Source: Escherichia phage vB_EcoP_ZX6. Taken from it: a DNA stretch of 43,510 bases. A model generated the notes under the pieces. The model saw nothing but the letters and a program-made list of their open reading frames with translations, had not been told where the DNA came from and made no database searches. The translations under genes and the position numbers were made by a program. Location: sequence record MZ424864.1; one strand, 5' to 3'. Numbering within the stretch: position 1 is the stretch's first letter; every line of letters starts with the position of its first letter. Of the stretch, positions 36,743 to 39,931 are shown piece by piece.

Positions 36743-37209
36743 TGTGCTTTCCCCTTACGTTTGATTTCCATAGCCATGCGGCGCAGGTCGTGCGCCAATT
36801 GCAGGGCTGAATCAGGGTCGATGTTAATCCCAATCTCAACCTTTGCCCGAGTGCTTCCCTTCTTAGGAACTACCCCGATGTACATTAAACCTTCCCCATC
36901 CCCGTTATCCTTCTCAAGAACTAGGCGCTGGTCATTTCCCGGGTCGCGCTTGGAGTTCATGTAGGCCACTTTGTCCGGGACAGGCGGCAGCTCGTCCCCT
37001 AGTTCTTGATACAGCTCGAAGTTCCTGACGTACCAGGGGTGTTTGTCAGCCCCGTCTACCCACCCATTCACCTGCAGCCAGTGATCACCAATAACAGAAG
37101 TCACAGTGTAGTAGATATCACGGCCTAACTTAGACAGAAAGTGTTCATCTTTGCCACAATCCTTTATACGCACAACCTTATCGCCAACTTTAAACTTAGA
37201 CATAATCAA
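36739..37209 (-). CDS. hypothetical protein (156 aa) with N-terminal KFKVGDKVVRIKD motif
   Basis: Early-region ORF; N-terminal motif is paralogous to the N-terminus of the DUF3310-like protein at 24932..25381. Confidence 0.5.
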   Translation of the reverse strand: MIMSKFKVGDKVVRIKDCGKDEHFLSKLGRDIYYTVTSVIGDHWLQVNGWVDGADKHPWYVRNFELYQELGDELPPVPDKVAYMNSKRDPGNDQRLVLEKDNGDGEGLMYIGVVPKKGSTRAKVEIGINIDPDSALQLAHDLRRMAMEIKRKGKAQ

Positions 37210-38261
37210 CCCTCCACAATATTATCGTATCCGCCCCAGTCTTCTACTACTCGGGTGCCCAGTTCAATCAGTTCTTCTTTGAAGCCGTAATCGGAGAACA
37301 CCATGATGTACTCCGCCGCCTTCTCTGGGTTCTCCTGCACCCAGCTAACAAGTTGTTGTTTAGAAAGCTGTGACACTACGCGGAACGCAGCCAGCAATTG
37401 CGGGTCCTCGTCCGGGGGCATGTCCCACGGCTGCCGTAAACTGAGCGTTGGCGCAGAGAGCCATTGGTCTGGTTCTACTACCATAGGATCCCGCTCAATA
37501 GGAAGGTGCGAGAACGTGCCGTCTTGTAGTACCCGCTCAAGCACTTGCCCCAGGATGTTCAGGTCCAGTACCTCATCCGGGGTGTGCTCGTGCATGTACC
37601 CTACACCGACGTTGGTGCACTCGGGAATGATGCCAACGAACTCTGCTGAGTCAGTATATACCCCCTTCTGTAAGTGCTGCTCCGTGCGTCCCAGGCGCTC
37701 TGCTAGGGTCTTGGCAAAGGTGTCAGAGCAGCATCGCATATACCGTTGGTGCGTAATGATTCCGTCGCCGCGTCGGTCGAAGCTAATCATTGCCTTGACA
37801 CCAGTCCAAAACCCGGTGTTGTCCTTGACCGATGCAGCGCTACCCTCGCAGCCTACCTCTTCATCCACGAAGAAGCAGTAGCGTCCGTGCACACCCCGCC
37901 GCAGCATCTCCAGCATCAGGTAGATACCGGCACCGCAGTCCGCACCTAAACAGTCAGCCTGCTGCGGATTATTTACGAACAGTACACCCTTGTTAGTGCA
38001 GCCGACGTCCGGCGCAGCGCTGGTTGCGCGCGCCACTGTGTCGAGATGAGACGTAAACGCTACGTCACTTTGCTCTGAGTCCCCCACCAGCACGAAGTAG
38101 TTCCCGTGCTTGTCCTTTACGTAGTGCATACCACTACCCAGCGCCTGTAGCGACTGCATAAGCAGCGGCTCGAACCACTTAGTGCTGCCCCAGCTAGGCC
38201 GGTGCGTTCGCAGTATCTGCGAGAGCAGCTGCATATCAATCCCGTGAGGATTCAAGAACAT
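37206..38261 (-). CDS. putative zinc metallopeptidase (M20/M28-like metal-binding pattern)
   Basis: 351 aa. Ordered motifs ..AFTSHLDTV.., ..LGADCGAGI.., ..FFVDEEVGCEGS.., ..YMHEHTPDE.. resemble the His/Asp/Glu-Glu/His ligand arrangement of co-catalytic metallopeptidases. Recalled pattern, not a search. Confidence 0.5.
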   Translation of the reverse strand: MFLNPHGIDMQLLSQILRTHRPSWGSTKWFEPLLMQSLQALGSGMHYVKDKHGNYFVLVGDSEQSDVAFTSHLDTVARATSAAPDVGCTNKGVLFVNNPQQADCLGADCGAGIYLMLEMLRRGVHGRYCFFVDEEVGCEGSAASVKDNTGFWTGVKAMISFDRRGDGIITHQRYMRCCSDTFAKTLAERLGRTEQHLQKGVYTDSAEFVGIIPECTNVGVGYMHEHTPDEVLDLNILGQVLERVLQDGTFSHLPIERDPMVVEPDQWLSAPTLSLRQPWDMPPDEDPQLLAAFRVVSQLSKQQLVSWVQENPEKAAEYIMVFSDYGFKEELIELGTRVVEDWGGYDNIVEG

Positions 38262-39931
38262 TAAGCTGCCCCCTCTACTTCTTCTTCGTCATCGTTGCCC
38301 AGGTACTTCTCTCCCAAGCAATCAGCTGCATACTCAGTGAGAATTAACCCGTGCACTGGGTGTTCTTCTGCGTGCTCAATAAGCACCTGCCGGTCCTGTG
38401 CATACACCAGTTCTTCTTGGTCGTGCACTACCCCTTCTACCGAACAGTGCTCAATGTCCGCGTCATATACATAGGCGTCGTGGTAATCAGACCAGGTGCA
38501 GCTCCAGCGATTATGCAGCCCTTCTCGGCCAACTACGTATACAAACTCCCCCTCTTCGACGCAGCCGTCGCAGACCATTTCATCGCCTGCGGTTTCGTGC
38601 ATATCATCAGTGGGGTAACGCCCCTCGCAGCAGCAGCACCTAGCAGACTCTGTACCTACGTAAATGTACCCTTCGGATTCCTGCGCCCCGTACTCGTAGT
38701 CGTCACGTATTACAAAGGCGTCACTGCCTTCTTCGTCTACGCCACACTGGCTGCTATCGAGATATGGCATCAGCACTGCGCCGTTGTAGGTTGGGTGCGG
38801 TATGCGCGCCAGCATTACCCCTTCGAGACATTCAGTGTTTCTGGTGTAACCATGACCGCGCATGATTGCATCCGCAGCATTACCGTAAGCACGGACGTAC
38901 TCGTTAGTCTCAGTGTTAACGATTGCTCGTGCCTGCACTTCGAAATCGTCACCGAACAGCTCCCCGGTGTACTGGATGAATAGGCGCAGCCCATTATCCG
39001 GCAGCCCGTGGCTGGTGGTAGCGTACGTCCGCACAGGGCTATGCTCAAAGGAGTACCCGCTCATGCAGCTACCCGGGCCATTCTCGTAGGCGTCGTACCA
39101 TTCCTGCTCGGTCTTGCACAGGTACGTTGTCGGGTCTACGTTCATAGCCTTGAGGTCTTCGATAGCATCGCGGAAGTCTACGCCGTTGCCGTAGTAGTTA
39201 GCTAGCCACTTACCTACACGCATCTCTACACAACGGTACTCAGTAACTGCGGCGAAGTCCTTGTGCATCCGCGGCTGCCCCAGCATCACGATGGGCTCTC
39301 CGTTGCGGAAACCAAAGCCCAACGGCACAGCGAATCTAGACACTACGAAACCGTGCAACTTCATGAGCAGCGCAGCGGCGTTGCCATCGCGGATGTGTCT
39401 GCCGTAATCGTAGCCAGTATATAAGCGGCGCTGCTGCTCTTCTGGCGCAAGCATAATGCGCTCAAATAACTGCACGGCCTGCTTGTGCACCTTGTAACCG
39501 GTGAACTCTTCTACACTAGCAACTACGCGCTCAACCACTACATCATCGCCATCATAGAAGTCGCGGCGGCGCTCCCAGAACTTGCTGTCGATGGCGATTC
39601 GCGCCGGGGAAAAGAGTTCGTAGAAAGTTCCAGACCGGTACAAGTCCACCTTTTGCAACGGGCCGCGAGTCATCATTACTTCGTGATACTCTGGGTGCAG
39701 TATCCCGCCTATAGTTACCTCTAATCCCGGGGTGTACGCGCTAACAGCACGGAGACCCATAAGCGCCTGCAGCGGGCCCTCAGTGTGGGGATGGTCAGCG
39801 CCCAGCATTTGCAAGTCCTGGAACGGGGTCCAGTAATCACCGCTGGAATACATCGATTCTTTCATTGGCAGTGCGTTTGCACCTTCCGGTAATACGATTT
39901 TCCACGGTATGCCAGCCGGATTAGTTTGCAT
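38261..39931 (-). CDS. large early protein of unknown function (~556 aa) with C-terminal Cys cluster and acidic tail
   Basis: Track ORF extends to 40228 (655 aa), but the first 99 codons overlap the 114-aa ORF and look non-coding. ATG at 39931 is preceded by AGGAG with a 9-nt spacer. Contains ..ESARCCCCEGRYPTDDMHETAGDEMVCDGCVEEGEF.. and ends ..NDDEEEVEGAA. No family recognised. Confidence 0.6.
   Translation of the reverse strand: MQTNPAGIPWKIVLPEGANALPMKESMYSSGDYWTPFQDLQMLGADHPHTEGPLQALMGLRAVSAYTPGLEVTIGGILHPEYHEVMMTRGPLQKVDLYRSGTFYELFSPARIAIDSKFWERRRDFYDGDDVVVERVVASVEEFTGYKVHKQAVQLFERIMLAPEEQQRRLYTGYDYGRHIRDGNAAALLMKLHGFVVSRFAVPLGFGFRNGEPIVMLGQPRMHKDFAAVTEYRCVEMRVGKWLANYYGNGVDFRDAIEDLKAMNVDPTTYLCKTEQEWYDAYENGPGSCMSGYSFEHSPVRTYATTSHGLPDNGLRLFIQYTGELFGDDFEVQARAIVNTETNEYVRAYGNAADAIMRGHGYTRNTECLEGVMLARIPHPTYNGAVLMPYLDSSQCGVDEEGSDAFVIRDDYEYGAQESEGYIYVGTESARCCCCEGRYPTDDMHETAGDEMVCDGCVEEGEFVYVVGREGLHNRWSCTWSDYHDAYVYDADIEHCSVEGVVHDQEELVYAQDRQVLIEHAEEHPVHGLILTEYAADCLGEKYLGNDDEEEVEGAA

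Follow-up and report, generated by a model that had tools for sequence, protein, structure and literature searches.

In ArdC, which is encoded by conjugative plasmids, a single-stranded DNA-binding domain is combined with a zincin metalloprotease, and the protein acts in the entry phase. In LysW/LysK, a zinc-ribbon amino-group carrier protein with an acidic, flexible tail (motif EDWGE) is encoded beside a gene for a clan MH hydrolase of family M20. Here we analyse a pair of adjacent genes of Escherichia phage vB_EcoP_ZX6 (MZ424864.1; the window is the whole stretch of 43,510 nucleotides) encoding a large acidic protein and a metallopeptidase, and compare it with these and other known systems. 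The two genes are as follows.

38261..39931, minus strand: large partner protein, 556 amino acids (aa) plus stop, phrog_6980 (unknown function), from start evidence, homologues and AlphaFold
37206..38261, minus strand: M28-type (clan MH) co-catalytic zinc peptidase, 351 aa plus stop, phrog_4191 'peptidase', from profile matches and ligands

Both open reading frames (ORFs) lie where a preliminary description of the window, made from its letters, had placed them. The reading that we favour, at a probability of roughly 0.4, is that the pair forms one functional cassette, in which the peptidase would be the catalyst and the large protein its specificity or regulatory subunit, acting on a host target at entry and made transient through its tail.

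A gene pair shared by phages and mobile elements

In phages, the gene that directly follows the large gene encodes a peptidase homologue in Drulisvirus, in Maculvirus VP93 (Vibrio), in Phimunavirus PhiM1 (Pectobacterium), in Minorna and in a viral contig of 48% identity. It also adjoins the large gene on the downstream side in six independent metagenomic lineages, the large proteins of which are 20–25% identical to that of the window. We surveyed genomes with the peptidase profile, keeping one genome per species, and obtained 80 loci from sphingomonads, Bradyrhizobium, Mesorhizobium, Pseudomonas, Nitrospira, Saccharibacteria, Bacteroidota and others. A homologue of the large protein was carried by 60 of the 80, directly upstream and on the same strand in approximately 54 of these 60 and in reverse order in three. 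Co-occurrence of homologous pairs, a matter that the preliminary description had raised for related phages, thus extends well beyond them, to three Autographiviridae genera, six metagenomic lineages and approximately 60 bacterial or mobile-element loci.

The association was not symmetrical. We saw no large protein without an adjoining peptidase in any locus where the neighbours could be checked, whereas approximately 16 of the 80 loci, in mixed contexts, had a peptidase without a detectable partner. Phage records matching the peptidase likewise outnumbered those matching the large protein (406 versus 336); the excess was found in Bacillus, Thermus and Cellulophaga phages, with no large-protein match among the matches listed. 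Since the partner was never seen without the peptidase and the peptidase can stand alone, the dependency appears to run in one direction. The pocket residues of the peptidase were identical with or without a partner. Two loci, L145 (607-4665) and L097 (1058-3772), carried two tandem large-protein paralogues upstream of a single peptidase.

Clustering of all neighbouring genes revealed no third gene shared with the pair. On the Sphingopyxis indica conjugative plasmid pMC4 the gene order is DUF2958, ParB, partner, 'M28 family peptidase', toprim, DUF2493, HEPN and Abi, and neighbours like these recur in sphingomonad chromosomes. Genes of the ParB, toprim and DUF2493 type are typical of the establishment regions of conjugative elements, and we read this island of pMC4 as a putative establishment region. 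On plasmids in general the pair is rare (10 of 72,556 records). PADLOC-DB gave no match for either window protein, for the plasmid homologues or for the neighbouring genes, and we found no functional work on KP34p10/p11 or related names in the literature searched. The partner family, its obligate pairing with the peptidase in phages as well as in integrated or conjugative elements, and its Ala-Ala terminus appear to be undescribed in that literature.

The peptidase

The preliminary description had suggested a co-catalytic metallopeptidase downstream of the large gene, and comparison with M20 and M28 models bears this out at the level of sequence. The window peptidase matched Pfam M28 (PF04389) with 23.4 bits, above the curated cut-off of 21.3, and nine of 11 diverse members matched the same model at E <= 0.1. 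A family profile made from 11 aligned homologues, with identity down to 29%, matched PepT-like chains in the PDB (E 1.2e-10 for 3gb0, and 4.3e-9), as well as TET1 (M42) and several M28 aminopeptidases. The features of the gene are listed here.

37584..38048, minus strand: active-site codon span (H72 at 38046-38048; D74; D108 at 37938-37940; E134/E135 at 37857-37862; D162/R163 at 37773-37778; H226 at 37584-37586)
37209..37487, minus strand: C-terminal helical extension, residues 259-351, from length comparison

All of the motifs previously proposed are present (H72-x-D74, G106-A-D108-C-G-A-G112, E134-E135 and H224-E-H226), with the correction that in the last of them H226 is conserved and H224 is not. 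Thirteen residues were invariant in 74 homologues from bacterial genomes (H72, D74, D108, E134, E135, D162, R163, D204, E214, C215, N217, Y222 and H226; one sequence is gapped at H72/D74), and H72, D108, E134/E135, D162 and H226 were also invariant in the 11-member alignment. The ligands run in the order His, Asp (bridging), Glu, Asp, His, and the catalytic Glu precedes the ligand Glu. The metal ligands, the absence of which from a proper alignment would have spoken against a peptidase, are thus invariant together with the catalytic Glu.

There is no M20 lid or dimerisation domain, as just 64 residues separate D162 from H226, and the alignments to PepT-like chains in the PDB cover the two catalytic halves and skip the middle domain. 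Judged by its ligand spacing and missing lid domain, the enzyme is M28-like, not M20-like, and its residues are those of a catalytically intact clan MH exopeptidase. A single-sequence AlphaFold model had a predicted local distance difference test (pLDDT) score of 38, and fold-level support for clan MH comes solely from the published HHpred match of the orthologue in the related phage fHe-Kpn01 (DapE 4H2K, 99.78%). The identification as a peptidase is not new, as many GenBank records already carry that label.

The peptidase is itself acidic, with an isoelectric point (pI) of 4.8. After H226, all 58 partnered homologues have at least 79 residues and nine of the 16 unpartnered ones have 50 or fewer, a difference which was not statistically significant; the C-terminal extension is a possible partner-binding region. 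The protein ends ...VEDWGGYDNIVEG (37209..37260, minus strand), in which an EDWG stretch is conserved only in close relatives; its resemblance to the LysW tail is probably a coincidence. In the 735-kb uncultured phage LR756501.1, five separate places match the peptidase, which suggests paralogue expansion.

The large partner protein

A HMMER scan of 1.84 billion representatives identified 308 relatives of the large protein at E <= 1e-3 (cluster representatives, <=50% identity). Scans of the large protein against Pfam, NCBIfam and PADLOC gave no match, a Pfam scan of 75 diverse homologues was also empty, and the PHROG matches of the family were only to the unannotated 6980 and 13313. PDB searches with the single sequence and with a 139-sequence profile returned only weak, chance-level zinc-finger matches; the published HHpred search with the fHe-Kpn01 orthologue gave no significant match; and Foldseek comparison of the predicted model with the PDB gave nothing at E <0.2. 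A structure search of BFVD returned only uncharacterised phage proteins, a few of them as partial matches of 120-140 residues to phage proteins named amidoligase and LIM-domain protein, which probably reflect the modelled zinc-ribbon and hairpin domain. The earlier view that this protein has no recognisable family therefore holds across sequence libraries, published HHpred and Foldseek against the PDB, and no homology to a characterised housekeeping phage protein emerged from these searches.

The AlphaFold model, computed from the family alignment, has a mean pLDDT of 81.7, and most blocks of residues 270-540 exceed 95. Together with conservation, it divides the protein as follows.

39365..39931, minus strand: N-terminal region, residues 1-189, poorly conserved family-wide, with a low-confidence model at residues 40-102
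38663..39364, minus strand: family-defining alpha/beta core, residues 190-423, from conservation and AlphaFold
39062..39070, minus strand: codons of S288-C289-M290, C289 being the sole fully invariant residue of the family (139 diverse sequences)
38561..38638, minus strand: C4 zinc ribbon, C432-x2-C435 ... C454-x2-C457, a CxxC-x18-CxxC pattern conserved family-wide
38312..38560, minus strand: very acidic beta-hairpin-rich C-terminal domain, residues 458-540, from AlphaFold and charge
38264..38311, minus strand: acidic tail, residues 541-556, EKYLGNDDEEEVEGAA, with conserved terminal Ala-Ala, from family tail comparison

Conservation spans approximately residues 190-470 and includes the CxxC...CxxC zinc ribbon, which follows the core motifs GPxSCM (S288, C289, M290), (H/S)PVRxY (Y303), ARAxVN (R335), YVRxYG (Y349), GY and MPYLD (Y390, D392). 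The Cys cluster noticed in the preliminary description is this ribbon, made up of CCCC at 432-435 and CDGC with C454/C457. Of its cysteines, C432, C435 and C457 reach at least 90% conservation among 139 sequences, as does C454 in a 65-sequence alignment; C433 and C434 are clade-specific additions. The region is modelled as short strands with pLDDT >90, and it is missing from some family members. The acidic C-terminal tail described earlier is likewise real: of a net charge of -49 (pI 4.6), -34 falls within the last 156 residues, which end DDEEEVEGAA.

Several candidate functions were rejected. An alpha/beta-hydrolase nucleophile elbow around SCM lacks a conserved flanking Gly and a strand-turn-helix; the candidate residues of ADP-ribosyltransferase-like and pseudouridine-synthase-like motifs are not conserved in the window clade, and the fold gives no support; and hhalign gave probabilities of only 1% and 24% for an internal duplication of the core or zinc-ribbon region. 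No likeness to Ocr or ArdA was found in Pfam or PHROG annotation or among the PDB matches listed, and acidity is all that is held in common. We found neither an OB fold nor an acidic tail whose last residue is aromatic or hydrophobic, as would be expected of a single-stranded DNA-binding protein (SSB). GenBank OK583892.1 and MW590329.1 give homologues the names 'putative DNA mimic protein' and 'putative structural protein'; we found no sequence or structural support for these labels.

The Ala-Ala C-terminus

The window protein ends in GAA. Among 130 family representatives (<=50% identity), 48 end in AA, against 0.74 expected (P ~1e-72), and 67 end in Ala; among close relatives, 118 of 120 end in AA, with varying residues before it. 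A few members end in AAE. The dipeptide is encoded by nine different codon pairs, is kept in 12 of 22 distinct tails that have no overlapping or nearby Shine-Dalgarno sequence or start codon, and is found with reversed gene order too. Because the codon pairs vary and AA persists without a Shine-Dalgarno or start overlap, it is evidently constrained at the protein level. The dipeptide is likewise present where the zinc ribbon or the acidic domain is missing. In a random-tag screen in E. coli, terminal Ala-Ala was necessary, though not sufficient, for strong ClpXP C-degrons (PMC10862746).

A second early protein of the window (41373..41948, minus strand; 191 aa; phrog_5277, unknown function) ends ...LKAAA, and of the 44 ORFs matching its family in the examined loci 34 end in AA, one of them the PhiM1 homologue (...PVPEAA). 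Among the approximately 60 largest non-overlapping minus-strand ORFs listed, only this one and the large protein end in AA.

Gene boundaries and genomic setting

The longest ORF for the large gene runs over 38261..40228 and would encode 655 aa, and public records give the gene three different starts (655, 610 and 556 aa). The features that bear on the start and on the junction with the peptidase gene are these.

39941..39945, minus strand: AGGAG ribosome-binding site, 9 nt upstream of the ATG at 39931, from sequence reading
39981..40325, minus strand: 114-aa ORF, phrog_6167, in another frame, overlapping the first 99 codons of the 655-aa ORF
38259..38276, minus strand: coupling junction, with Shine-Dalgarno GAGGGGG (38270-38276), GCAGCT, then TAATG

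We compared the overlap (39984-40225) in 46 distinct Drulisvirus sequences and scored variation by codon position. Variation was 0.222 at position 3 of the 114-aa frame versus 0.092 and 0.055 at the others, and position 3 of this frame is position 2 of the 655-aa frame. Downstream of 39931, the large frame has the usual pattern (0.040, 0.027, 0.134). Since variation in the overlap follows the 114-aa frame, the N-terminal extension (39932..40228) is non-coding, and by the same pattern the phrog_6167 ORF is a real gene. Homologue lengths agree: the fHe-Kpn01 annotation gives 556 aa, homologues at 43-46% identity have 550-555 aa, and more distant ones 550-575 aa. The ribosome-binding site, codon-position variation and homologue lengths thus support the ATG at 39931, the start that had been proposed from the AGGAG sequence, and the GenBank annotations of 655 and 610 aa are over-extended. 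The two genes have the same orientation, and the TAATG, a 1-nt overlap of the large-gene stop with the peptidase ATG, points to translational coupling; the Shine-Dalgarno sequence lies inside the upstream gene.

Every gene of the window is encoded on the minus strand. With Klebsiella phage F19 the region shares 97.6% identity, and its matches comprise 245 phage records, almost all from Klebsiella Drulisvirus (Autographiviridae, Slopekvirinae); the window phage is a KP34/F19-like Drulisvirus. The sole 10/12 match to a sigma-70-like promoter on the coding strand is at 42625-42597. The pair follows approximately 10 small early ORFs and has the primase and helicase genes directly downstream. It thus lies in the early or middle region; the wording 'immediately after' the early promoters in the preliminary description is inexact, because of the intervening small ORFs.

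Right after the peptidase stop comes a gene of approximately 155 aa (phrog_4317; 36739..37209, minus strand; likely ATG 37203, with GGAGGG upstream), which is conserved in PhiM1 and not across the wider family. HHpred matched its fHe-Kpn01 orthologue weakly to the R67-type DHFR fold, and that orthologue was also seen in particle proteomics. Two HNH endonuclease genes, probably for homing endonucleases, lie in the DNA-metabolism region (33807..34286 and 25782..26249, both minus strand), one of them between the helicase and DNA polymerase genes.

Expression in a related phage

In fHe-Kpn01, the partner (Gp12), the peptidase (Gp13) and Gp14 were detected by liquid chromatography with tandem mass spectrometry of purified particles, and the primase, helicase and polymerase were not. 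As 29 of 56 proteins were scored as particle-associated in that study, we take detection of Gp12 and Gp13 to prove that they are expressed and abundant, not that they are packaged. The same score led to Gp12 being left out of the fHe-Kpn01 toxicity screen, from which the peptidase was likewise absent. A role in DNA hypermodification is unlikely, as a restriction map of fHe-Kpn01 DNA was made by digestion with nine enzymes.

Discussion

Under the cassette model that we favour, the mobile DNA would express both genes soon after cell entry. The catalytic part would be a single-domain, M28-type, dinuclear-zinc exopeptidase, and its obligate partner would have an alpha/beta core that belongs to no known family and a flexible tail with Ala-Ala at its end, usually together with a C4 zinc ribbon and a strongly acidic domain rich in beta structure. 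The partner would bind the peptidase, possibly via the C-terminal helical extension of the latter, and direct or regulate it against a host protein or peptide, in host takeover or counter-defence. Its Ala-Ala end would make it a client of a ClpXP-type host AAA+ protease, confining it to the entry phase. We infer the physical complex, the host target, the anti-defence role and ClpXP recognition of the pair. The host-modifying or anti-defence role, in particular, is a candidate one, suggested by context: the early or middle regions of phages and the ParB/toprim/DUF2493 island of pMC4. A bolder form of the idea, which strikes us as rather unlikely, is that the cassette belongs to a new class of entry-phase effector, in which an Ala-Ala protein and an M28 exopeptidase would jam or hijack a host AAA+ protease, or the C-terminus would be built on or trimmed, to disable a host response.

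Several observations weigh against the cassette model. As unpartnered peptidases keep the same pocket, the partner is not needed to define it. PADLOC, Pfam and NCBIfam are silent for the partner, and the trend in length of the peptidase C-terminal extension is not significant. The tail pattern is also partly set at the nucleotide level: in the window clade, the codons of the EE or EG preceding AA are the Shine-Dalgarno sequence of the peptidase gene (GAGGAG or GAGGGGG), and in sphingomonad loci L081-L138 the '...(A/T)GA' C-termini are the AGGAGC Shine-Dalgarno of the peptidase read as codons, by sequence a clear case of a translation signal shaping the last residues of a protein. We accept a downstream Shine-Dalgarno as the explanation of the EE/EG and GA parts and reject it for the terminal AA. 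Furthermore, strong ClpXP tags are neutral or positive and hydrophobic, with Leu favoured and with Gly and short polar residues disfavoured at -3 (PMC10862746). The residues upstream of AA in the window tail (DDEEEVEGAA) are neither neutral nor hydrophobic, position -3 in the family is most often Glu, and VEGAA or VEEAA would be a weak ClpXP tag at best.

Some of the same evidence could be read differently. The large protein may be the peptidase's own substrate or pro-protein, activated or stabilised by trimming at the C-terminus (of Ala-Ala, halting at the acidic run) or at the N-terminus, for example through removal of a degron. This would account for a partner that is never found without the peptidase while the converse does occur, for a C-terminal dipeptide conserved at the protein level, and for the few members ending in AAE, as if with one extra residue; the invariant R163, beside the metal ligand D162, could bind a substrate carboxylate, judging from M20/M28 enzymes generally. 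However, the identical pocket of unpartnered peptidases implies that the enzyme has other substrates, and the residues before AA are highly variable, so that we regard trimming of the partner as doubtful. We also think it unlikely that the large protein acts on a host AAA+ protease as a decoy, inhibitor or adaptor, with Ala-Ala engaging ClpX and the stable zinc-ribbon or acidic domain stalling or occupying the protease, thereby shielding mobile-element proteins or blocking host responses. Such a role would leave the obligate peptidase unexplained, the acidic upstream residues are a poor fit to strong ClpXP tags, and AA also ends members without a zinc ribbon or acidic domain. In its favour, phage inhibitors of host proteases are known (T4 PinA, T7 gp4.5). 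A tightly folded, confidently modelled domain stands directly before the tail, the family of the second early protein (41373..41948) mostly ends in AA, and terminal Ala-Ala is the key ClpX determinant (PMC10862746).

The pair might otherwise be an enzyme couple, in which the partner core is a divergent GNAT-like acyl- or aminoacyl-transferase, or a carrier protein with a built-on C-terminus in the style of LysW/LysK or of scaffold peptides, and the M28 hydrolase removes or releases the product, or exposes N-termini for the transferase. In our own reading of the AlphaFold model, the secondary structure of residues 130-320 fits alpha-alpha-beta-beta-beta-alpha-beta-alpha; the core carries an invariant Cys, conserved Arg and Asp and several Tyr; the BFVD 'amidoligase' protein shares a segment of approximately 120 residues; and a zinc ribbon and acidic tail next to an M20/M28 hydrolase are reminiscent of LysW and LysK. 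We nevertheless find a couple of this kind distinctly unlikely, as published HHpred had no match, the conserved columns hold no Q/RxxGxG/A motif for the pyrophosphate of coenzyme A (CoA), none of 75 members has a Pfam acetyltransferase match, the neighbourhood has no conserved ligase, of the ATP-grasp type or any other, hhalign gave no sign of an internal duplication, and the terminal residue is Ala in place of the Glu of LysW. Very unlikely, in our view, is a replication accessory (an SSB-like protein, a loader or a DNA mimic whose acidic tail binds partners) linked incidentally to the peptidase. The large gene does always lie beside replication genes (primase and helicase here, toprim on the plasmid), none of 10 other ORFs of the DNA-metabolism region scanned against PHROGs matched an SSB family, the protein has a zinc ribbon and acidic tail, and one GenBank record says 'putative DNA mimic protein'; yet SSB tails end in an aromatic residue and not in Ala-Ala, and the strict coupling to the peptidase would go unexplained. 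A toxin-antitoxin-like arrangement, in which the upstream acidic, degron-tailed protein keeps the peptidase inactive until proteolysis frees its activity at a set time, is most improbable: an 'antitoxin' of 556 aa would be atypical as a core gene of phages that are strictly lytic, and the peptidase is acidic too (pI 4.8), even though the gene order, the 1-nt overlap and an acidic upstream partner with a protease-type tail resemble the type II layout and the enzyme can occur alone.

Should the pair prove to serve in counter-defence or takeover, such a module is widespread: it has 308 representatives at <=50% identity and occurs in integrated as well as conjugative elements across many groups of bacteria. 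A metallo-exopeptidase would then be an additional mechanism in a field where small inhibitors and enzymes that degrade nucleotides predominate. Both genes are core genes of the Klebsiella Drulisvirus phages, which are candidates for phage therapy. The partner can be tested directly, because it is large, with a confident predicted structure, no significant PDB neighbour and a sharp signature (Cys289, terminal Ala-Ala). For annotation, we recommend the ATG at 39931 (556 aa) as the start, removal of the labels 'DNA mimic' and 'structural protein', and the name M28 family for the peptidase.

Among known systems, the partner differs from GNAT acyl- and aminoacyl-transferases in having no sequence or profile match and no CoA motif, and Foldseek and published HHpred were negative. 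It is like LysW in being a zinc-ribbon protein with an acidic, flexible tail encoded beside a clan MH hydrolase. Unlike LysW, it is ten times larger, has an unrelated core, ends in Ala and not in EDWGE, and has no linked ATP-grasp ligase; the NCBIfam LysK match of the peptidase was at chance level (E 0.14). With ssrA and other ClpXP C-degrons the partner shares a flexible tail, a terminal Ala-Ala and a free carboxylate. Its tail is genome-encoded, however, and not added by transfer-messenger RNA, and the upstream residues are acidic or Gly/Glu, where those of the ssrA tag are hydrophobic or neutral. With ArdC the pair has in common only the concept of a binding module joined to a metallopeptidase in the entry phase. 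The two are unrelated in sequence: the pair has neither DUF1738 nor an HExxH zincin domain, and it consists of two polypeptides with a clan MH enzyme. The closest relatives of the peptidase are the M28 aminopeptidases of Aeromonas and Streptomyces, with M20 PepT/DapE and M42 TET farther away: it shares the order and spacing of His, Asp, Glu-Glu, Asp and His, the Asp two residues after the first His, and a single catalytic domain matching PF04389 above the cut-off. By sequence it is a new subfamily of this known family, separate from known M28 enzymes and found in phages and mobile elements, which has additional invariant residues (R163, Q172, D204, E214-C215-x-N217 and Y222) and differs from known M28 and M20 enzymes in its C-terminal helical extension without an M20 lid domain and in its obligate partner in most lineages.

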